DNA of 54,740 bases, filler included, from Basidioascus undulatus (GCA_000826855.1; 5 parts of 5 records of this genome joined end to end with filler, not necessarily neighbours in it); one strand, 5' to 3'; counted from the first letter of the whole stretch, positions 10,881 to 43,890 are shown. The notes: generated by a model not told the origin, from the sequence alone. A program made the numbers and translations.

Positions 10881-10980
10881 NNNNNNNNNNNNNNNNNNNN
10901 NNNNNNNNNNNNNNNNNNNNNNNNTTAATTAATTAANNNNNNNNNNNNNNNNNNNNNNNNNNNNNNNNNNNNNNNNNNNN
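10881..10980. other. Artificial contig linker (N44-TTAATTAATTAA-N44)
   Basis: 100-bp spacer carrying stops in all six frames; identical at four places. Confidence 0.99.
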
Positions 10981-21852: not shown

Positions 21853-21952
21853 NNNNNNNNNNNNNNNNNNNNNNNNNNNNNNNNNNNNNNNNNNNNTTAA
21901 TTAATTAANNNNNNNNNNNNNNNNNNNNNNNNNNNNNNNNNNNNNNNNNNNN
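21853..21952. other. Artificial contig linker
   Basis: N44-TTAATTAATTAA-N44. Confidence 0.99.
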
Positions 21953-22012: not shown

Positions 22013-24108
22013 TCATAGAACACAATCAGGCAGCTTGATTTCCTTTAGCCTCTTATCGTTGGTGACTGCGAAAAGCGAACAAGTCAGATTTAGGCCAAGC
22101 TGCACAAACGGCGTAAACGGAGCCCGTACAGAGACCCCAGTGTCCCTCTACACCGCCATACAAGGGGACCTGGGGCAATTATATCAGTTTAGGTTGAAAT
22201 AGAAGACCTGTTGGCATAGAGAAAGATGTCGAAGCGTACCTTCCAGTCTTCATCGAACATCTGCCGCAGTGTCTTTCACAATGAGCCGACGCAACCACGC
22301 TTGCAACATGTAGGGCACACTCACCTCGAAGTAATAGTATTGATATCCTTTCTGGTTGGATTCGCAGACGAAAGTGTCCAGGAACGTTTGCAAGTTGGGT
22401 ATGGAGGCTGACGCATTGCCCGCACTGTACGAAGTCCGCTCAGCACACCAAGGTGTGTGGAGGCTTCGGAGGGTTGTGCGTACTTGTACATATGTTCGGC
22501 GTCCTCCGAGCCCTGAGAGGTATAACTGTAAGGTAGGCAACCAAACACGCCATGGAATTTCAAGGCTCACCGATGGCCATCCGACTTCGGCGATGTACAA
22601 GGCTGGGTCATTCTTGAGACCCATAGTCGGCTTCTTGACGAAGTTTTCGAAGAATTGCCAAGTCCAAGCACTGAGGATTACCAGCCACGAATGTCAGTGC
22701 ACATCGCGTAGCGAACCCTGCACATCGCTTTAGACTTACGCTGCTCCGTCCACCGGCGTCCCCGCGAACCAGGGGTGTGTATTGGCCGCGACGAAGTCCG
22801 CACCTTCCGCGAGCTCCGGCGTCACCAGGCTCGCTGCGTCGGAGGTACCGACTGGAATACCCAAACCCATATCCTTCAGCATTGACCGCACGTCTGCCAT
22901 TTTCTTGATCAGGTTGTCCCGAGCAGCGACTGCCGTGGGGTTGTTGGCGTCTCGGAGCGGGGGATTTAGTGCCGAAATTTGATTCAGGATGTCTGTAATA
23001 GCATGAACAGGATTATCAGTATGGAATTATACGCTATGAAACAAGAGAGACGTGCATTCGTTCCCGACTGCGATGCCCATGATATGATCCGTGCCATAAG
23101 CTATCAGAGCGTCTCGAATCGCTTGTCTCTGGCGAATGTAGGCATCCTCCTCGTTGGTGACGTCTAGTGGACTGTTTCAGCGAAAAACCTGTCAAGAGCG
23201 AAAGAGGCACTCACAGACAGCAATAATTATGTCGAGGTCCACTTTCGTTCGGTGTATCGCCTCGAGGACCAGGGCAGTTTGGTTGCAGTCTGGAAGGAAA
23301 CAGTCCATTTTCCATGGGTCATGTTATGGCAGTACCAGGGATACTCTGTGGGTCTTTTTTCATATGAAAGTAAAACGCACCGGCCCCATAAAGTCGAACT
23401 CTGGGGGTGACCTGCGCCAGAAGTTGGACGCTTGGTGCAAAGGGAGAGCGTCAGCTGCACATCGCTACTCCTGTTGGAACAAGATAGGAATGCTCACTCT
23501 TCGGTGACGTTGGCCTGTGTTGCACCGCATTCAGGCATGAGAGCACCTCTCGCCGTGTAGCTGCTCGACCGTCCCACCTTCTGTTCAGTGTGCCAGAGTG
23601 CGTGTACTGTTCAGCTTTCCCTCACTCACGCAAAGCCCCAGAAAGCCCGCTTCAGCCTATCATCCTTCTCGAAGATACTCCAGTCTCCTGGATTGCTTTT
23701 GACCGCTCGAGCCGTCCCGTCGATGTACACGAGATCGCGATTTCCTCCTCCAGGGGCCGTCTTGTTTCCTCCCCCGTTCGGCCCATCGTTTGTCGTGCCG
23801 CCAGATGTGTCGGTAGGGCCCCCACTGTTTCCGTCCGTCGACGACCTATTGGAGCTCCCATTGTCTTCGGCCGAGTATAGAACGCCGAGTGCTATCGCTG
23901 CTGCCAGGAGGGCTACCATCGCGAAAACCAGTACGGCCAACAACCCTCGGTGCCGTCTGACCCAGGAGCGCCGAGGAGGTGGCCGGGGTGACTCGTAGTA
24001 ATAAGTATTATCGACAGGGGTTCCGGTCCGGAGCTGGCTGATCTCGCGTGGAGGTGGTTCAAAGGAGAAGTCCAGGTACTCCTTCGATGGCGAAAACGGT
24101 GAAGGCAT
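22013..24108 (-). CDS. Glycoside hydrolase family 17 beta-1,3-glucanase/transglucosylase with type II membrane anchor (BtgC-like)
   Basis: TM segment LLAVLVFAMVALLAAAIALGVLY, a G/S/T/N linker, then AFWGFAYT..GALMPECGATQANVTED, PRVRLYG, DCNQTALVLEAI, AEVGWPS, LQTFLDTFVC, YYYFEMFDEDWK, GVEGHWGLF. Confidence 0.93.
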
Positions 24109-32822: not shown

Positions 32823-32922
32823 NNNNNNNNNNNNNNNNNNNNNNNNNNNNNNNNNNNNNNNNNNNNTTAATTAATTAANNNNNNNNNNNNNNNNNNNNNN
32901 NNNNNNNNNNNNNNNNNNNNNN
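32823..32922. other. Artificial contig linker
   Basis: N44-TTAATTAATTAA-N44. Confidence 0.99.
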
Positions 32923-34392
32923 GAGCGTGTGTGTGTGTTTGCTGATGTGGCTGATGGTGTGTATGTCGTGAGTCGTGCGTGTGAGATGAGGTCGTTAGAG
33001 TGCCGTAGCGTGTTGGATGTCGAGTGGAAGTGGAAAGCAACAACAGTCGTTGGTGTGTGGAGGTCGTTCACTCTCGTGTTGTCGACATCGGCCTAGCCGA
33101 TGACGACGGCGGGGGGGAGGAGGGCAAGGAGGAAGATGGGAAGACCTCAGACGAGATGGTGATGGTGGTGATGGGTATAACAGTGCGAAGGGTGCGAGTG
33201 AGAGACGGTCGGGATGGAAACCCCTAAGGGCGCGAGCGCCGCCAGCTGAGCGGCAGCCCTCGCCCGCCGGCCGACGCGTCCCCTCACACGACGCGCCTCG
33301 CGTCCGAGTTCAGCCATCATCGACAGTCGAATTTCTTCAACAAACAGCCTCTTCTCCTGCAATTTCTTGAATTCCAATGAATCCATGCTCAAGTACTTTC
33401 TCTGGGTTGCTCAGAGAGGCTCACGCAAACGTCTTGCGCAACGACATCGCTCGAGCCCCTATCTCGCTGATTGCCACAGCCTGACAGCGTCACGTGCATG
33501 AAAGCCGATACAGGACTGCCAGAGGATTACATTGCCTGTATAGTTCACAGGTTGTACAGTTTAAACAGGAGCGTCTCCTTAGGCACACCGTACCCAGGTT
33601 AAAGTCCCCTTCCCAAGACCTGAGGCTTGCGGACGTGCTTGAGCACCGCAACCTGCTGACAACGGCTACCTTCGCTGAGGAGACTACCAGCTGAATCTAA
33701 AAAAACGCCATGTATTTTCAATGTGGTATACTAACCTTCCATCAGCGACAATGCTTCAATAACGGAGGCAGCAGCTGGCGCCGGTTCTTCCCAATCCTCG
33801 CAGGGACTGCTTCCATCGACGAGGTGGGCTCGCACCCCCGGGCCCACTCCTCAACAAGGTTCAGGTTTCGGAAGGAAATAACTTTATCTCGTCCATTATC
33901 CCTCTTCGCAGTCAACCACGAGTTCGCTCAGCCGCATTCTTCGACGCTCAGTGGCCAGCCCAAGTCGGTGCACGTCTATCAATATGCCCCAACTGTGCTC
34001 CCGAAGAAGCATTATAGCGATTAAAGAAACCCCTGATGGACCATAAGACAAACACACTACTTGCCTCAGGCAGCAGGGGCCAGTCCGAGGCACGCACGCA
34101 GGGTGAAGTTTTCCAGTGCGAGTGGCCTGTCTGGCCGCGGAGCCGCCATTTCCCCTTCCAAGGGATCTGACATTTCCAGAACCTCAAGCTTCGATTCATT
34201 TTTTTTTTCCTGTGAGAACCATTTGAGCTTTCAACGTAAAGGTGCCCCTTGGGAGGGGCCGTGGGCGCCCCTCCGTGCAATATGGGTACGGCGCACGCTG
34301 GAATGCCCCCTGGCTCCCACGTGTCCCTTGCCGTTGGGTAAATAAACACAACACTTCTCCATCGAGCTACGGGTGTGACTGTAGCCAGAATC

Positions 34393-34399
34393 TATAAGA
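34393..34399 (+). promoter_or_regulatory. Candidate TATA box
   Basis: TATAAGA about 160 nt upstream of ATG 34555, followed by a CT-rich leader. Confidence 0.4.
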
Positions 34400-34554
34400 G
34401 GACGGCTGCCCCGCTGCAGTTTAATCCCCATCAGCAGCAGTCCGCTTCTCTTCCTCCCTCACACTCAGCCAGTCCTTCTCACTCCCACATTCGCTCAACA
34501 CCCACACTCCTTCCACCTCCACGAGCACAAGGACCACCACCCCTATCCCGAGCC

Positions 34555-35995
34555 ATGCACTTCCGCGCCACCCCCACCGCGCTCACCCTCATCGGCCTCT
34601 CCTGCTCGAGCATCGCCTTCCCGCTCCTGCACTCCTCCACCTCCCCCTCCTCTTCCTCGCTCAGCGCACGAGGCTCCAGCCGCGGCCCGATCAACATCAA
34701 GAACGACGTCGTCGCGGACCTGGTTATCACCGAGGAGGACTTCGACCACAACCACCTGGAGAGCGGGTCGCGCGGCGGCGGGAAGAAGAAGAAGAAGCAC
34801 TCCAAGCGCGACTACGACAGCGAGGACAGCGAGGAGGAGGATGAGGATGAGGAGGATTACGATGATGAGTACTCGGATGATGAGTACGTGGTCGAGTACC
34901 ACCACGGCGGGTACTTCGGCGGGGACAAGGGCAAGTGCGATGTGTACTGTAGGAAACTGCCTTGGTGCGTCTTCGACTTTCTCTTGTTCAAGTGCAGGGC
35001 AGAGCTGACGACAAAACCCCTGCCTGTTTCACAGGCAAGAGTGGAAGCCCTCCGAGTCCAAGTGTGGGAAAAGGCCGGAGTATGTCTACCTCGCCGAGGT
35101 CAAGGAGCACGTCCCCAAGAAGGACGTCTGCGCGATCGAGGTCTCCAAGTGCCTATACAAGCCGCAGCGCCCCGCTGCGGTGCAAGTGAAGAAGCCGAAG
35201 AAGCCCGAGTACCTCGAGGTCGAAATCGTCGAGGAGGAGAAGCCCGAGTACGTCGAGGTCGAGTTTGTAGAGGAGAAGAAGCCCAAGCCGGAGTACGTCG
35301 AGGCCGAGTACGTCGAGGCCGAGTTCGTTGAGGTGGAGGAGGAGGAGCAGCCCGAGTACGCGTACATCGTTGAGATCCAGGGCGAGAAGCCGCAGTGCGT
35401 CGAGTGCCTGCAGGCGCCCGCCCCGCCCGTCTACTACGAGGAGAGGCCCAAGCCGGAGTACTACGAGGAGTACAAGCCACAGCACAAGCCCGAGTACTAC
35501 GAGCTCAAGGAGGAGCACAAGGTCGAGTACCACATGGGCAAGGGCGCGCCGTGCTATGAGGAGGAGTGCCAGCCCCAGCACGAGTACAAGCCCGCTCCGG
35601 TCTATTATGAGGAGAAGAAGCCCGAGTACAAGCCTGCACCCGTATACTACCAGGAGAAGAAGCCCGAGTACAAGCCCGAGTACAAGCCCGAGTACAAGCC
35701 CGAGTACAAGCCCGAGTACAAACCCGAGTACAAGCCCGAGTACAAGCCTGAGGAGGAGTGCGAGGAAGAGAAGCCGGCGTACAAGCCCGAGCATAAGCCG
35801 GAGGTCGTACAGGTCGAGCAGCCCAAGCATGAGGAGCACCAGCCGTTCTACTACGAGGAGGAGAAGTACGAGCACAACCAGAAGTACGAGCACAAGAAGT
35901 TCGGGTACGGGAACGCTCCGCGGGCCGAGTGCCCCAAGAAGGAGTGCGGGCAGGGCGCGCAGTGGAAGGGCGAGCATGGGTGCGAGACTGTGTAG
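34555..35995 (+). CDS. Secreted Glu/Tyr/Lys/Pro-rich repetitive protein (456 aa)
   Basis: Exons 34555-34964 and 35035-35995 splice in frame (1371 nt). Signal-peptide-like N-terminus MHFRATPTALTLIGLSCSSIAFP, a KR site, an acidic block, KPEY repeats, scattered Cys and strong GC3 codon bias. Confidence 0.88.
35660..35752 (+). repeat. Coding 12-nt tandem repeat (AAGCCCGAGTAC), 7 full copies plus a partial, encoding (KPEY)n
   Basis: Seen directly; near-perfect units, with further degenerate copies across 35200-35800. Confidence 0.97.
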
Positions 35996-36816
35996 GTCCT
36001 TCAGACTTTCTCTACTCGAGCTTTGAGGCCCACAAGTACTGATGGCAGGATCTCTTGGGACAGTTGCAAACCCGGGCACAAGTCGCAGATCGCTTTCGTA
36101 GACGAGAAGGAAGTTCACCATTGCCGCTAGATGTGTCTCCCTTCCGAGCAATAGGCTTTTCTTTCTCTGCCCCTCCTCGCATATAGACATTTTTAGTTTT
36201 TTTGAACATGTACACTGCTGGTTCTTCGAATCGATCCTTGTAAACGACAATGTGCACGCCACTTTGCAGTTCGCCGTTTCGCAACGCATCTACTTGCATC
36301 AACCAATATCTGCGTGCTGTTCACGAGTTCAAGGAAGGGAAACGAGAAATACATTCTAGAACGATCAAATGCAGGCTTTTCTGTCTTTTTAAATCTCGTT
36401 CGATATCATGAAGCTCGCCTGCCAGGGCGACGCAACGGTTTCGACTCAAGTCCTCCATTGCTTTTTGGCTGACAGAAATTCACATCAAGTTCCGCCCAAA
36501 ACGCTTCCGCATCAAACCTCATATGAATGTTCATAGCCCAAAGAGACCGCAGGCCCTCCCACTCGTCTTCACCAGTCCATCCCCATCCCATGGAAAGGCA
36601 CCGTCTCCAGCGGCACGCACTCGTCGCCCCACTAAGTCACCCTCCCATCCATCCCACCAGTAGTCTCCTGCATTTTCCCGGAATCATCGCGGACGGCGAG
36701 AAACTCCGCGACCTGCACGATCGGAAACATCCGTTCCCCCATCCACTTCAATCCCAGCGTGACCTCGTCAAGGGTTGAGACAGTGTAGTCGTTCACGCTC
36801 GCATGACAGCTAGGAG

Positions 36817-37416
36817 ATGGCTGACCAGCTTGTCGCCGAGACGGAGGACAGCAGCCGGGTCATTGGGCCACTCGAGCCGCACGTCGTTGACATGCAGGAC
36901 GGGCAGGTTGCGGAAGCGGGCGATACTGCTCAGACACGTAAACTGCAGACCGTAGAGGGGTTTCAGTAAAACAACATGCTGGATCTATGGGTTTGGACTG
37001 ACAACATTACCGACGAGACGGTGCTTGAAAGGCAGCCCGAACTGATGGAGCGCCAGCGACATCGCGTCCATCTCGAAGCCCAGCTCCAGGATTTCAAGGC
37101 CCGACTGGGCTTCAAGAAGCTCGTCGATGTCCACCAGCCCTCGCCTTTTAGAACTGACTTCAATCATTCCTCGGACCCTAACGGCGTCGATCTGTCTTCG
37201 CCAGTGAGCTACCGGCGGAGCGCTGGCTCAACTGCCGGCTTTGACCTTGACTTTCAGGCTTCGCTTGACTCTCTCTCCGCCAAGTCTCTGCGCAGGATGG
37301 CCAAACTTTTTTAGTTATACTGAGCACTAGACCCACGTATATTGTCGTTGATAATGGAGTTACAAGTTTCCTTCCTGAAGCAGCCAGCGAGCCGGTCGGT
37401 AGCCAGCGTCCGGTGA
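36817..37416 (+). pseudogene. Relic ORF of unknown family interrupted by three in-frame stops
   Basis: One frame runs from ATG 36817 (MADQLVAETED...) with stops at 36967, 37312 and 37321 and protein-like sequence on both sides of each. Confidence 0.4.
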
Positions 37417-37839
37417 GATTCGTCCCCGTTTGAAGGGGCGGCCTCAGAGGTGGGATTTAAGAATTTCAACTTCACTAAAGTCTCTTTGGATCCCCGCAAC
37501 CGACACCTTAGAAGACGGCATCATTACCCGGGGTCCAGCGCCCCCCCTGCTCTCACCCTTCGGCTTTCAAAGCTGAAGCGGTGTTTTTCTCTGGCATTGG
37601 TTTCGAGAACCCATCAACAAAGGTTTATTACGGAACAGGGCAGCTCTATCACAAGGGGTATACGCTTGTTTCGAGGGCCACAGAGAGCACTAGGCTTTTG
37701 CCGACTTGTCCTGCGCATCGCTGGTTGCCCTCCCGCCATCACCACCTTTGTCCACACACCGCACCCCAGAAGCCAGCTACACAGTCACCATACCCTCCTC
37801 GTACCCCTACATCGCCTGGGTTCCCGCTCAAGTTCTCCT

Positions 37840-38742
37840 TCAGACGGGTGCTACCTCGACACACCTACGCTCGCTGTCCTTTCCACGTTGTAGCCACGCC
37901 GTCCGCAAGCGGGTCTTCCCCATCCTCTTCTGCCGGATCAGAATCACGGCGGATTCGCTGATATCGTCGGATGAGATTGAGCGGCGTCAGTGGGCGAAGA
38001 AGGACATGCGCCTGAGGGAAGTTGTCGTGTGAGTTCTCCGACGTGGAGTGCTTGGGCGGGCTGTGGTGTTTCTTGGCTACTGACGCGGGGCTCGGTGTGT
38101 ATAGGGAGCTGACCGTCGGGATGATCCACGTTGAACAGATGGAAAGATCTTCGACGGAGCGATCGCCTCCGTATTGAAATCGCTCCTTGCCTGGACACTC
38201 TGTCCTTTCGCGGTCGCCCGCCTCAGGCCCCAGCTGCTCACCTCCATCGCTCGCCTGCGCCCCCCCCTCCGCTCTTTGACTCTGCACGGCGACCTGGTCG
38301 AAGGGCTCTCCAGCCTTTCTCGGCTTCGTCCCCTCTCTCATCTCCACACCTTTTCGATCAACCATGTCGATTCCTCCCTCGAAACGCGTAACACGCTGGA
38401 CATCCCGGAGCTCGCGGGGCTCTTCCCCCAGCTCCACCGTCTCGCGTCCGCACAGCTCTTGCCCTCCGCTCCCTCATCCAGTCTATTCCCCAGTTTGAGG
38501 CAACCGTGCAGCTCGGCTCCACGAGCGACATCAGGCCCCTGTGGTTCTTTGCCGAGGAGCACTACGAGGTCTACACGACTGCGCACTTCGCGGTGCTGGC
38601 AGCCTCGCTGCAGCAGTGCAATATCTTGCAGCAGATTAGGTTCAGATACTCCGAAAGCCAAAGTGGAATATGGCGGCCCAATGGATGCCAGCAGGTAGCG
38701 GAACACCACCGAACGTGTCACGGTCAGGCCGTACATCTGTAA
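37840..38742 (+). pseudogene. Disabled F-box-like/LRR gene
   Basis: YLDTPTLAVLS joins RCSHAVRKRVFPILFCRIRI only across a 1-nt shift near 37885. An intron starts near 38029 (GTGAGT). LRR-like LRSLTLHG, LSHLHTFSI and FPQLHRLA follow, with further frame changes near 38185 and 38505. Confidence 0.6.
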
Positions 38743-38879
38743 ACGCAGAAACACCTTTGCGAAACTGAAAGTGTGCAGTGCTGGACGGCTGCTGGAATAA
38801 GAGAAACAGAAGGCAGACTTGAGATGGACGGACAGTCGACAAGGGGAGCTGCGTGCATGTCAAAGAAACCCTCCCCACA

Positions 38880-39234
38880 CCCTCCCTTCTCGGCGATTTG
38901 CTCGATCTGCTTGGCAACACCCCACACACGCTCCCTGTTTCTCATGGAAGGGCACCGACTACATGCTTTCGCGTATGCGAGCCAGGGGAAACGGCGACCC
39001 TTCCCGCCGGCCTTCATCACCTGGGCGTCCCACCACTGTACGTCGGCATACCCGTACTTGCCGTCTACGTCGTGAGCGTGGAGTGGGGCTGGTGGGTTGC
39101 AATAGAATCGCCCGCGAGACGGTCGATGAAGGGAAGGTGCGCGGGACGGATGGCGGTAGACGTGCTAAGCAGGGCGGTGACGGAGGAGAGCGGAAGGTAG
39201 GATGCGAGGGCGAGGAGGATGTCCTCGGTAGGCA
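38880..39234 (-). pseudogene. 3' fragment of an F-box protein gene, frameshifted
   Basis: PTEDILLALASYLPLSSVTALLSTSTAIR...FIDRLA (F-box-like), then in another frame QWWDAQV...FPWLAYAKACSRCPSMRNRERVWGVAKQIEQIA, which from memory resembles the MxNRxRIW C-terminus of a fungal F-box family. No 5' exons are evident. Confidence 0.65.
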
Positions 39235-40050
39235 CTGAGACTGATATATCTTGGCTGCATACACAACATGAAGGTAATGTAAAAATTACCTCAGGAAGAA
39301 GGCAATCTTTCTCATGGTCAGCTGGGGTCCGACATGGATGGAAGCAACCTGACCGGATCGGTTGGCTGAGCTCATGACCTCATGGCCAACACCGCAGAAG
39401 TTCCTTGTCGAGTTGCACGTTCTACTCATGGACCAGCATCTAGAACGACCGCAACATCTTTGAATGAGATATCTCTGAAAAAATTGCTAAGAGCCCCCCA
39501 GGCAGTCCTTTCGTTTAGCAGTCCTGGTCGAACCGTCTGCGTCCAGACATGGCCAGACAGACGCCACTTGACTGTGCCTTGCGGCAACTCCGAGTCCGAG
39601 TTACCGCCGCTCCTGGATACAGTCAATGTTGTGAAATGGGAGTCCCAGAAAAGCTCACGCAATGTCAAGAGGGACTGCCATGCACAGACGAAGCGTGCCT
39701 GTTCCCCTGCGCAGTCTCCTAAGCTCGCATTCCTACTGCACCCCTGCATCTCGAAGCCGCTCAATGGTCAGAAAGGCGTCCTTGATATCTGGATGGTCCT
39801 TCAAATACATACCCTGGAATGAGCTCTACCTCTATCTTTCTTCCCCACCCCAACAAACTATGAGCGTAAAGCATTCTTCGCAACAGCTGCGTCTTCGTGT
39901 CCATACCGGCTTTCACAACACGCCCACAGGCATATAACGCCGGCGCTGGGAGACTCTCAGAACCCAACAGTCACTTCTTCTTCTTACCTCCAGTTCTTCC
40001 TAGCTCTACATCCTCTCAACACTCGTACTCCCGCTCATACACACACCGCG

Positions 40051-40815
40051 ATGTCCGCCCGCCCCTCCACGCTCCTCCTCTTCCTCGCAACCTTTACCGC
40101 GCCGACCCTCCTCGCGCACCCGCTCCCGCACACACCCCCTGCTTCCTCCGACCTCAGCGCCCTCGCGTCCAACCTGGGCCCGGTGATCCTCAGCAACCGC
40201 GCGCTCTCCCCGCCGGCGCCGGGGACGTCCCCGAATCTCGTTGGGCGGCTGGCGCGGCGCCAGGTGACGATCGACAACTCTGTCGACACGGACCTCGACT
40301 TCGAGCTGGAGGAGTTCAAGTACTCGAAGTCGGGAAAGGGCGGCGGGGGAGACGTGCCGTACTTCCCGCACCACCACAACAATCACAAGCACCACAAGAA
40401 GGACGTCTCCGCGAAGCCCCGGGCCTACGCGCGCCGCGCCCTGACGGACCTCGTCCGCATGCCGGCGGACACGCTCAACAGGGCTCAGGGGGAAGCGAAG
40501 CAGCAAGCGGCGGCCCAGGCCCAGCGCGCACAGCAGTCCCGCCCCCAGCTCGTCCACGACGACGCGCCCCCGCCGTTCCGCCCTGCGGGGTCGGGCGACG
40601 ACGCGCAGGCCCAGCAGGCCGGAGGGTCGCAGCCGATAAATATCAAGAACAACGTGGACACGGACTTGAACATCGAGCAGGAGCAGTACAGGCATGACCG
40701 GTGAGCTTCCCTCATGCTTTGCGATGCGAGGAGCAGTGCGCTGAAATGCACCTCGATGCACGGCAGCCTCGGACACCTCAGCCGCAAGCGCTTCCTCTTC
40801 AGCACGCTGCACTAG
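40051..40815 (+). CDS. Secreted small protein with candidate Kex2 sites and two copies of an IxNxVDTDL motif
   Basis: Signal-peptide-like MSARPSTLLLFLATFTAPTLLAHP; basic sites LARR, YARR and SRKR. Probable intron 40701-40766 adds the terminal RLGHLSRKRFLFSTLH*; the unspliced ORF stops at 40704. Confidence 0.85.
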
Positions 40816-40953
40816 ACGTTCGAAACCTGTACACCCTTACATCACCTAGTGAACAGCCTGCCTTCCGTTTCCTTTCTCCTTTCCTCTTAGTCTTAAACGC
40901 GTCGCACATACTAGCATCTTCGTATCAGCTAATATAATATCCCCCCTCGCCTC

Positions 40954-43754
40954 TCAAAGGCCCGGCTCCTCCTTCTCATACGCCCCCGCAACCATGCACA
41001 GATTCCTCCCCGTAAACTGAACGTCCACGATCGGCGTGCGCTTGGTCATGAAAGTCGCAAGCAAGTCCTCACTGTCCCCCCAACCACCCCAATCAGTTCC
41101 CGTCCTCCTTCTCCCTCCTCTCAACCTTATTCAACTCCTCCCCAAGCCTAAGAGAACGCACCTGGCGCTGCCCTCCGCAGCCTCCGACCCCGCGCTCTTG
41201 ACGTCCCAGCACCGGACGCTCCAGTCCGCCCCGCCGGAGACGAGCATGTCCGACCCGGCATCGAACGACAGGGAGTAGATCGCACCACTGTGGCCCGTCA
41301 TCTTCTTTACGCGCCGGCCGGAACCGAGGTCCCACAGGTTGATGGAGAGGTCGTCGGCTGTCCCACCAACAATCATCAGCACTTCGCTTCCGAAAACCTT
41401 TCGGGAACTCGCGCAGGGAGGAGGGAAGAGGGTGGAGGAAGGGAGAAGGAGGTGGGGTGGAGGGGACAGGAAAGGGAGAAAAGACGCACCAGCCGACGCG
41501 AGGTACCGCCCGTCCGGGCTGACAGCGAGCGCAGACAGCGCGCCCTGGTGGCCGATAAAGACACGCACGCACGCGCCGCGCTGGACGTCCCACAGGCGCG
41601 CAGTCCGGTCGGACGAGCCCGTCGCGAGGTAGAGCGAGTTCGGGTGGAACTTTAGGCACTGCGGTCCGCCGCCCCCACCCACGGGTCAGCTGCCTCTTCT
41701 TCCAAGCCCTTCTACCGGGGAGTGATGGACCCGGTAGAAGGGATGGACAGGGAAAGCGGGAGGGAGCGAGAGAAGAAGCAACGCACGTCCACGTCCCCCA
41801 AGTGCCCCGCAAAGCACCTGAGCGCGCCGGCCCTCTCAGCGCTCCACAACCTCGCCGTCCTATCCCTACTCGCCGTCGCAAAATAAACCCCCAGAGGGCC
41901 CCACTCCACATCCCAAACCGGGTCCCGATGCCCGCGATATACCGCCAAATTGCTCAAGGTCTCCAAACTCCACAGCCTGGCTGTCCCGTCCCCCGAGGCG
42001 GAGAGGAGATGCCGCGGCGGGGAAGCGGCGCCGGCGGAGGGGTCGAAGGAGAGGGAGTAGATGGGGGCGGAGTGGGCGATTAGGCGGAGCTGGGGGGAAG
42101 GCGTGGAGGTGGGGGAGCGGAGCTTCTTGAGGGAGGAGGGAGGATGCGTGGAGGGGAAGTCGGAGCGGAGGCCGCGGAAGGGCGTGCCGCGCAGAGAGTA
42201 GAGACGGATGGAGGAGTCGGAGAACCCCCCGGCTAGGAGGGTCGAGTCGGGGGAGAAGGTCGCGGTGTTGAGCCTGCGGGTCCACCATCCATCAGCTCCT
42301 TCTTCCTACACCTCGTTCCCAGGAAAGAAGAAACGCACGAGTCCCCCGCATCATGGAACGTGAACGCGCAGACGCTGGGCAGACTAACCCTCGTCTTCGC
42401 GCCCGCCCCACCCAACGCCCCCGCACCCAACGCACCCTCCATCACCCGCCCCTTCCCCTTCTCCCCCTCCAGCACCCCCAACCGGATCCGCTTCCGCGCA
42501 TCCCGGACCTTCTCCACCTCCCTCTTGACGTCCGCGGTCCTAAACACCGGAAGAGGGGGCATGTCCGCCCTCGTAGGCGCCTCCACCCCCCCTTTCTCGG
42601 GCTTATTCTCCTCCTCCTTCTTCTCCGCCGCTGCCGCCGCCGCCGCCCCCGCGTCCTCGCCCTCCTTCTTCAACTGCGGCTGCTGCTCGCCGTCCACGTC
42701 CATCCGCTCCCCAGGGCCCGGATCTTCGGCCTTGACGGTCCGCTCGACCTCCGCGCGCAGCCCCTCTTCCAGAGGGGCCGGCCCGAGCTTGAGCGGGCCC
42801 GCCGCTGCGTTGAATGCGGACGGAGAGGCGGCGGTGATGGGCCGTGCGCCGCGCAGGGTCGGGTAGGAGGTTACCAGGTCGGAGACGAGGCCGGTGGACT
42901 CTTCGAGGAGCGAGGGCGTGAGGCGGATGGAGGCGTCGAGGACTGCGGGTGGGGGTGTGAGTCCCGGGAGCAGAAGGGGAAAAGTGGCAAAGAAGAGGGG
43001 AGGAAGAGGAAGAGGAAGAGAGACGAAGACGCACCATCCACCTTCAACCTCTCATTAACCAACTTTAGCATCGCCTGCCTCCCCTTCCCCTCCACTCCCC
43101 CTCTCACGCCTCCCCCCTCTCCAGCGGGGCCCCCAACAAGCGCGTCGCTCAACCATCCCAAGAAAAGCCCCCACGCGGCCCGGCCCATGCGGACCACGTA
43201 CTTCTGGCTCCGCCAGCGCTGCGCGAGCGGGTCGGTCCGCACGTGCGAGGGGAGCGTGATCCCCGCCAGCCGGGCGATCGTCTCCCCGTGCGCCGGGAGG
43301 AGCGGGCCTGAGTGGCGCAGGAGCAGGGCGCGCGCGGCGGAGGTGAAGGAGAGGGAGGTTAGGTCCAGGTAGGCGTGCACGAAGAGAGGGAAGAGGAGGG
43401 GGCGGAGCTCGGGCTGCGATCATCCCCATGTCAGCTTTCGGTCTTTCCCACCTTCTGAAAAGAGGAAGAGGAAGAGAAGGGGAAAGGAGAAGGGGAAAGG
43501 AGAACGCACCCGATACACATCCAAACTCCCCTCAACCCACCTCTCCAAATCCCTATACCCCCTCGGCCTCTCCGCCGGATCACTAAGCAGCGCCTCCTCC
43601 GCCGCCGCCCCTCCCGCGCCCTGCGTCGCCGCAACGCCAACCAGATGCGCAAGGACCGCCTGGTCCTTCCCCCCCGCCGGCGCGACCCCCCCGTCCGGCT
43701 TCGCCGCGCGCGGCGCGTGCGGGGCGTTCTTGGACGCGAGCTCGGCGAGGGTCA
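40954..43754 (-). CDS. TAF5: TFIID/SAGA subunit TAF5 (NTD2 + WD40), 5' part missing at contig end
   Basis: GYRDLERWVEGSLDVYRPELRPLLFPLFVHAYLDL, DVKREVEKVRDARKRIRL, LPSVCAFTFHD, AVYRGHRDPVWDVEWGPLGVYFATASRDRTARLW, FHPNSLYLATGSSDRTARLWDVQRG, TKRTPIVDVQFTGRNL. Confidence 0.97.
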
Positions 43755-43790
43755 CTGTGTTTCCCGGTGCGGTCGAAGGAGTAGGGGCGG

Positions 43791-43890
43791 NNNNNNNNNN
43801 NNNNNNNNNNNNNNNNNNNNNNNNNNNNNNNNNNTTAATTAATTAANNNNNNNNNNNNNNNNNNNNNNNNNNNNNNNNNNNNNNNNNNNN
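43791..43890. other. Artificial contig linker
   Basis: N44-TTAATTAATTAA-N44. Confidence 0.99.

Follow-up and report, generated by a model that had tools for sequence, protein, structure and literature searches.

Two co-oriented genes of Basidioascus undulatus, gene 1 and gene 2, begin with a shared leader module of about 90 residues, which is wider than, and contains, a 19-residue acidic motif found once in gene 1 and twice in gene 2. The genes lie in a 54,740-nucleotide stretch of DNA from this organism (GCA_000826855.1), here called the window, from whose first letter all positions are counted. It is quite possible, and we tentatively favor this reading, that the motif and the basic tail that follows it form a paralogous pro-region or peptide unit delimited by Kex2-type cleavage sites.

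Two genes with a common leader

The gene models on which the analysis rests are as follows.

34555-34964, plus strand: gene 1 exon 1, opened by the first ATG of its frame and supported by the GC content of third codon positions (GC3), a positive codon log-likelihood ratio and the donor GTGCGT at 34965; it encodes a signal-like start (residues 1-22), a Ser-rich linker with LSAR (residues 36-39), motif copy A, a Gly hinge, a Lys-rich tail to KR84-85 and an acidic stretch
34965-35034, plus strand: putative gene 1 intron, 70 nt (GTGCGT...GCTGAC...CACAG), with G at +5 and T at +6 of the donor and a pyrimidine-rich acceptor
35035-35995, plus strand: gene 1 exon 2, Glu/Lys/Pro/Tyr-rich repeats, stop codon at 35993-35995 (translation P0001)
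40051-40700, plus strand: gene 2 exon 1, encoding a signal-like start (residues 1-22), a Pro/Ser-rich linker, the half-motif GPVILSN, LARR67-70, motif copy B, GGGG, a His/Lys tail to RR128-129, an Ala/Gln stretch and motif copy C
40701-40766, plus strand: putative gene 2 intron, 66 nt (GTGAGC...GGCAG)
40767-40815, plus strand: gene 2 exon 2, encoding the Arg/His-rich tail of copy C to KR224-225, then the heptapeptide FLFSTLH and a stop codon

The products would be 456 aa (gene 1) and 232 aa (gene 2) long. GC3 is 0.91 in each proposed exon, compared with 0.875 in Pfam-anchored exons (807 codons), and in every one of the four exons it is the stated frame that has the highest codon log-likelihood, +0.50 to +0.74 per codon, against -1.57 to +0.28 for the other five. 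The periodicity profile ends at 35995 and returns only from 40051 to about 40815. Conserved motif residues differ in synonymous codons, four of them between copies A and C, as would be expected if the peptide is under selection in this frame. Because of the GC3 values, the codon likelihoods and these synonymous differences, we regard both as real coding genes in the stated frames. The gene 1 intron was picked from 52 frame-compatible GT-AG pairs, all of which were enumerated, and gene 2 pairs were enumerated likewise; a shift of the GC3 phase from coordinate modulo 3 = 0 to 1 between about 34950 and 35035 supports the gene 1 intron, and a candidate at 34944-35034 (donor GTACTG) was replaced by 34965-35034 after the enumeration. 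Read without its intron, gene 2 stops at a TGA at 40702-40704, and GC3 past the intron is still high (0.82-0.93). C/T-rich tracts, which are common ahead of strongly expressed fungal genes, stand just before the ATG of both genes (34440-34554 for gene 1, 39960-40050 for gene 2); an upstream DNA element common to the two (26 nt, 77%) was dropped as within chance at that length.

Residues 3-90 of gene 1 are colinear with residues 11-122 of gene 2 (gapped alignment, E 8e-6), and when the gene 1 leader was run with phmmer against the 1601 six-frame open reading frames (ORFs) of the window, gene 2 was the first non-self match (E 5.9e-7; the next stood at 0.034). Both leaders open with a hydrophobic, signal-like start; [F/H]-P-L-x-H comes next, then a Ser-rich stretch containing S-x-L-S-A, after it G-P and the motif, and at last S-G-x-x-G-G-G and a Lys/His-rich tail. 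Gene 2 carries a 27-residue insertion behind GPVILSN, a degenerate half-motif. A first-pass annotation of this DNA had called the two genes otherwise dissimilar, which is wrong for the N-terminal 90-120 residues: they have in common a colinear module of about 90 residues and not the 19-residue motif alone. Since the alignment runs colinear far beyond the motif, the genes are better read as paralogous over the N-terminal leader. Copy C, to judge from its sequence, is an internal duplicate of the core of the leader module. A 21/23-nt identity encoding KKDV[C/S]A was also seen between 35113-35135, in gene 1 exon 2, and 40392-40414, within the copy B tail; common descent past the leader may have left this trace, or it may be a coincidence of codon bias.

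The products are putatively secreted, as had been proposed: on inspection by hand each starts like a signal peptide, in that the n-region is basic (R4), the core is hydrophobic and position -1 holds Ala, a small residue. The best 10-mer in the core has a Kyte-Doolittle mean of 1.81 in gene 1 and 2.30 in gene 2, and neither product has a later hydrophobic stretch (19-mer maxima of 0.35 and 0.86, respectively). Single-sequence AlphaFold2 models of the two leaders have a mean predicted local distance difference test (pLDDT) score of 51 and 55 and contain no strands, which, coming from a single sequence with no alignment, is weak evidence. The linker regions are Ser/Pro/Gly-rich, with block pLDDT of 42-59. 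The models are thus compatible with disorder in both leaders; the one helical stretch predicted in gene 2 is an Ala/Gln segment at residues 123-162. A complex prediction for residues 36-95 of gene 1 and residues 62-130 of gene 2 was run twice without controls, scored 0.00 each time and is counted neither for nor against binding.

The repeated unit and its putative processing sites

The three copies of the motif, each reproduced exactly by translation at the positions given in the first-pass annotation and each in agreement with the consensus proposed there, are these.

34687-34743, plus strand: copy A, gene 1 residues 45-63, net charge -4
40261-40317, plus strand: copy B, gene 2 residues 71-89, net charge -7, starting at the residue right after RR69-70
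40633-40689, plus strand: copy C, gene 2 residues 195-213, net charge -3, near the C-terminus of gene 2

In the alignment I4, N6, V8, D11, L12 and E17 are invariant. Pairwise likeness is uneven:

copies A and C: 11/19 identities, BLOSUM62 score 54
copies B and C: 9/19 identities, BLOSUM62 score 51
copies A and B: 7/19 identities, BLOSUM62 score 28

The A-B pair taken alone scores at the shuffle mean, and A is linked to B through C. No composition-preserving shuffle out of 1000 attained the best 19-mer score: in both comparisons the observed 54 stood above the shuffle maximum, which was 48 for gene 1 versus gene 2 and 45 within gene 2. BLASTP of copy A against copy C gave E 2e-5. With a hidden Markov model built from the three copies no fourth was found in the window, whose 1601 six-frame ORFs gave a next best score of 3.1 bits; a motif-like match at 22198-22281 (E 0.48), which lies in another block of the window and in a 28-codon ORF, was taken as noise.

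The i,i+2 hydrophobic alternation attributed to the motif also stands. In gene 2 the beta hydrophobic moment peaks at the motif windows, and when the 14-residue cores are shuffled the observed moment is reached in 219 (A), 17 (B) and 10 (C) of 5000 trials. One face of the strand consists entirely of Asp, Glu and Asn, and the acidity of the motif (-3 to -7) argues against spontaneous aggregation of the motif alone.

Each strand is followed by a basic tail, so that the repeated unit consists of a 19-residue acidic amphipathic strand, a hinge of three or four Gly and a tail rich in Lys, His and Arg that ends in KR or RR.

34744-34809, plus strand: tail of copy A, a His-containing linker, GGG and KKKKKHSKR; net charge +6, three His, ending at KR84-85
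40318-40437, plus strand: tail of copy B, GGGG followed by a His/Lys-rich stretch; net charge +8, six His, ending at RR128-129
Gene 2, after copy C: tail of copy C, Arg/His-rich; net charge +4 (counting the Arg of a split codon), two His, ending at KR224-225

The earlier description of a glycine run and a Lys/His-rich stretch after two of the copies is therefore correct, with GGG in A and GGGG in B, and the charges are opposed in every unit: -4/+6 in A, -7/+8 in B and -3/+4 in C.

Kex2-type sites lie at LSAR36-39 and KR84-85 in gene 1 and at LARR67-70, RR128-129 and KR224-225 in gene 2. Cutting at KR and RR in silico would yield four fragments from gene 2 (after RR70, RR129 and KR225) and three from gene 1 (two KR sites). 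The proposal that every copy is flanked by basic sites survives in part. Sites of this type do bound the units; LSAR is not dibasic, however, the upstream site of copy C is 65 residues off, and SRKR, together with the end of gene 2 at 40815, hinges on the 66-nt putative intron.

Beyond KR85, gene 1 runs for 30 residues at net -20 and becomes a repetitive protein: the 371 residues past this site include 86 Glu, 50 Lys, 42 Pro, 44 Tyr and 13 Cys, with Glu, Lys, Pro and Tyr making up 60%. Its repeats are PEYK (seven times), units of the PEYVEVEFVEE type and Cys pairs. By composition this body is a candidate structural protein of the wall or matrix. At 35202-35389 it has alternating acidic strands of its own, PEYLEVEIVEEE, PEYVEVEFVEE and PEYVEAEYVEAEFVEVEEEE, each followed by a Lys/Pro-rich linker; the logic of acidic strand and basic linker is that of the motif unit, in a different sequence. 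The short Pro-Glu-Tyr-Lys repeats resemble the Tyr/Pro/Lys-rich repeats of plant proline-rich proteins and extensins.

Relatives, precursor classes and competing explanations

The suggestion that the motif belongs to no named family has held up in the libraries searched. Pfam gave nothing above noise for three exon products, and a profile of the three units had no match in the PDB at E <= 10. Word-indexed searches returned no match for gene 2 (217 aa) among 1273 candidates of near length and none for gene 1 exon 1 (129 aa) among 3816 candidates of greater length, and an exhaustive phmmer search with gene 2 against 1,835,955,588 representative proteins had no hit at E <= 0.001. In the ESM Atlas the best score for gene 2 was 0.76, and gene 1 exon 2 gave nothing usable. 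Motif fragments are absent from the catalogues of two surveys of Kex2-processed repeat proteins (the KEP class; four and three supplement files), and a full-text search with motif and repeat fragments gave no paper. For gene 1 exon 2 the word-indexed search gave four matches among 5993 candidates. In the three compared (P0002-P0004) the likeness is limited to short repeats, and the fourth, P0005, is a fish gap-junction protein (E 4.1e-4). P0002, a hypothetical protein of Ophidiomyces ophidiicola (partial, 287 aa), aligns to 45% of the query at 48% identity (E 4e-18); it resembles the gene 1 body in its long HKPE/DYKP repeats and differs from it in an unrelated C-terminal domain of about 140 residues, and its partial record is without a leader. 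A lack of homologues is not unusual for this class of gene, since 2560 of 7878 catalogued KEPs stand alone without them (PMC7329392).

The pair suits one described class of fungal precursor better than another. The search rule for Kex2-processed pro-domain (K2PP) proteins (bioRxiv 10.1101/2020.05.27.120113) specifies a signal peptide and an LxxR, KR or RR site in the first half, with more than 4 aa ahead of this site and over half of the protein behind it; the pro-domains are reported to be disordered and to aid folding or secretion. Gene 1 agrees with this layout, with a signal-like start, LSAR36-39 and KR84-85 and with 371 of its 434 post-signal residues beyond KR85, and so does gene 2, with LARR67-70 and 162 of 210 post-signal residues beyond it. 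Their Ser/Pro/Gly-rich linkers and low pLDDT would, as weak evidence, suit a disorder-promoting pro-region as well. SnTox3, ToxA and SIX1/4/6 share the same plan of signal peptide, disordered pro-region, site in the first half and larger mature part, into which gene 1 fits. Unlike them, the pair has in its pro-region a conserved, internally duplicated unit common to two genes; gene 2 is without a folded mature domain; and gene 1 carries a repetitive, charged cargo rather than a Cys-rich globular effector, with cleavage here predicted only.

The first-pass annotation had turned instead to the Rep1 repellent and other KEPs, an analogy that fails on copy number. The KEP pipeline (PMC6339444) looks for a signal peptide without a transmembrane segment, at least four KR/RR fragments and at least three fragments sharing one repeated pattern, whereas gene 2 has two copies and gene 1 one. 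In Rep1-type proteins Kex2 sites separate tandem amphipathic repeats of 34-55 aa, at least ten in number; Rep1 has 12 and Hum3 has 17 (PMC4617103). Like our pair, whose secretion is predicted, Rep1 and Hum3 of Ustilago maydis are secreted precursors with amphipathic units bounded by Kex2-type sites (PMC6339444, PMC7329392, PMC4617103), and in Hum3 the units precede a structural (hydrophobin) domain, as the gene 1 unit precedes the Tyr-rich body. The copies in our pair, however, are not tandem and are irregular in length, and a strongly acidic strand is joined in each unit to a basic tail; Rep1 itself was compared by description. Any sequence relationship to the Rep1 and Hum3 repeats would lie under the E <= 0.001 level at which phmmer with gene 2 had no hit among the 1.84 billion representatives. 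The leader unit thus looks like a new sequence family inside a known kind of fungal secreted precursor, and the leader as a whole, real and without a match elsewhere in the libraries searched, looks like another case of a common precursor type.

We infer secretion, cleavage and a role after release from features of the two sequences, and the course of events may be pictured as follows. The signal peptide would be removed from both products, and a Kex2-type protease of the late Golgi would then cut at LxxR or RR before the unit and at KR or RR after it. From gene 1 this would free a pro-piece of about 46-63 residues from the 371-residue Glu/Lys/Pro/Tyr-rich, Cys-containing repetitive protein. 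Gene 2 would be a stand-alone precursor giving two unit-bearing peptides, because it has no other domain (no Pfam match, one predicted helical stretch); selection on its motifs, taken with this lack of another domain, suggests that the unit-bearing pieces are its product. Since the acidic strand would offset the basic tail within the unit, its most likely role, to our minds, is that of a charge-balanced pro-region or peptide which keeps a very highly charged cargo soluble through secretion, and once released the peptides may have an activity of their own. The reading as a pro-region or peptide unit delimited by Kex2-type sites is favored because the succession of signal, disordered linker, LxxR/RR, unit and KR/RR matches the K2PP rule.

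Several observations weigh against this reading. The charge pairing is known from three copies only. LSAR has no basic residue at P2, and so fits LxxR without being dibasic. Copy C has no nearby upstream site, the nearest being RR128-129, and stands at the C-terminus, an odd place for a leader element. The lengths between sites, at 46, 60 and about 96 residues, are irregular compared with those of typical repeat precursors. The gene 1 hydrophobic core, at the value of 1.81 given above, is only moderate, and the signal call was made by hand; the introns of both genes are predicted from sequence; and the protein library searches found no orthologue of either gene.

It had also been proposed that the motif is a device for self-assembly, an extracellular amyloid-like or beta-sheet polymerisation tag that, once released or exposed, would polymerise two proteins together on the cell surface, the small product of gene 2 and the Tyr-rich one of gene 1. 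The strength of the beta-type alternation speaks for such a tag, as do the presence of the motif in both proteins and the further alternating acidic strands of the PEYVEVEFVEE type in the gene 1 body, followed by KK(P)K; moreover, the Kex2-released peptides of Rep1 do form amyloid-like fibrils (PMC4617103). Yet a 19-residue strand of net charge -3 to -7 with one wholly Asp/Glu/Asn face would be disfavored from self-association without counter-charges, and a cut at KR84-85 would part the motif from the Tyr-rich body, leaving nothing tethered. The one and two copies here also compare poorly with the repeat numbers of Rep1 and Hum3, and no sequence relative turned up among known assembling proteins (Pfam, 1.84 billion representatives, PDB). 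We consider this explanation unlikely.

A conserved prepro region joined to a hypervariable cationic peptide is the pattern of frog-skin peptide and defensin precursors, and our two genes share with these a conserved signal and acidic piece ahead of a cationic piece that varies, the charges of the two pieces being matched. On an antimicrobial explanation, the signal and acidic propiece would be the secretory cassette and the variable His/Lys-rich tail the active product, which the acidic strand would hold inert until processing. It would account for an acidic piece that is conserved next to a basic piece conserved in composition only and varying in length, and for tails rich in His and Lys, with three and six His. 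In copies A and B, however, there is no dibasic site between motif and tail, the Lys run itself being the sole candidate; the tail of copy A is scarcely more than a run of five Lys; and a 371-residue protein follows in gene 1, which is foreign to such precursors, as is the fungal source. This too strikes us as improbable.

More speculative still is a 'charge-zipper', in which the unit would be a new, lineage-restricted extracellular assembly tag: after Kex2 release the strands and tails of different molecules would pair and seed a polyampholyte beta-sheet matrix with the acidic strands and Lys-rich linkers of gene 1, tyrosine cross-links fixing it and gene 2 serving as nucleator or glue. We would regard this as a long shot.

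Far less probable is a precursor of ribosomal cyclic peptides of the ustiloxin (dikaritin) type, in which part of the unit would be a core peptide modified by neighboring enzymes. The signal-like starts, the repeats and the Kex2-type sites recall the KEP and ust-RiPS precursors described in PMC7329392, but there are only two copies at irregular spacing, the motif strings are missing from both KEP catalogues, and no DUF3328 (UstYa), tyrosinase or methyltransferase was recognized by Pfam in the 106 ORFs scanned, the block that holds the genes being only 10.9 kb long. Finally, a chance or low-complexity likeness, or ORFs that are not genes, might be suspected in a GC-rich region with long ORFs in several frames, given an A-B score at the shuffle mean and no homologue in very large libraries, but we regard this least probable reading as refuted by the shuffles that never reached the A-C and B-C scores, by an alignment colinear well past the motif, and by the GC3, codon likelihood and synonymous differences that single out the stated frame.

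Genomic setting and significance

Five blocks, each about 10.87 kb long, make up the window; between them stand 100-nt spacers that each consist of 44 N, TTAATTAATTAA and 44 N.

10881-10980: spacer
21853-21952: spacer
32823-32922: spacer
43791-43890: spacer

Both genes lie in block 4 (32923-43790, 10.9 kb) with no N between them, so that the claim of a common contig and strand is upheld; this block alone, with 1.6 kb 5' of gene 1 and 3 kb 3' of gene 2, is the genomic context of the pair, and neighborhood across blocks is not shown. A Pfam scan of the 106 ORFs of at least 110 aa from 24878 to the end of the window found cyclophilin, RRM, WD40/TFIID (TAF5) and adenylosuccinate synthetase only. 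The adenylosuccinate synthetase fragment scores 272 bits against PDB chain 5i33_A, a fungal enzyme, and is far less close to animal chains (160 and 154 bits), plant chains (145 and 144 bits) and bacterial chains; taken with the short introns, this points to a fungal source. The cyclophilin/RRM and adenylosuccinate synthetase genes sit in other blocks, and one recognized neighbor is in block 4:

41096-43531, minus strand: TAF5-like gene with several exons (TFIID NTD2 and WD40 repeats, by Pfam)

It is convergent with gene 2, from whose stop codon its 3' end is separated by about 300 bp, and would be a useful synteny anchor for orthologous loci. Gene 1 and gene 2 are 4055 bp apart, and both the intergenic stretch and the 1.6 kb before gene 1 are without strong coding periodicity. 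Within the 36000-40050 interval two moderately periodic ORFs (36817-36969 and 36976-37314) share a frame and are parted by a stop, and GC3 is about 0.85 over a short patch at 38480-38660. None of these has a Pfam match, and the interval could hold a decayed or weakly biased gene.

So far this is one lineage-restricted pair, known from sequence. The pro-domains of Kex2-processed proteins are usually regarded as featureless and disordered; if the processing model is right, the pair would add to this class of fungal secreted proteins a pro-region unit that is defined in sequence and duplicated. Being common to two different cargoes, such a unit would provide a handle on what a pro-region does, whether in solubility, in sorting or as a released peptide, and it would matter for the correct expression and study of the gene 1 and gene 2 proteins. 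The two genes are, besides, a candidate source of a Tyr-rich protein of the wall or matrix.

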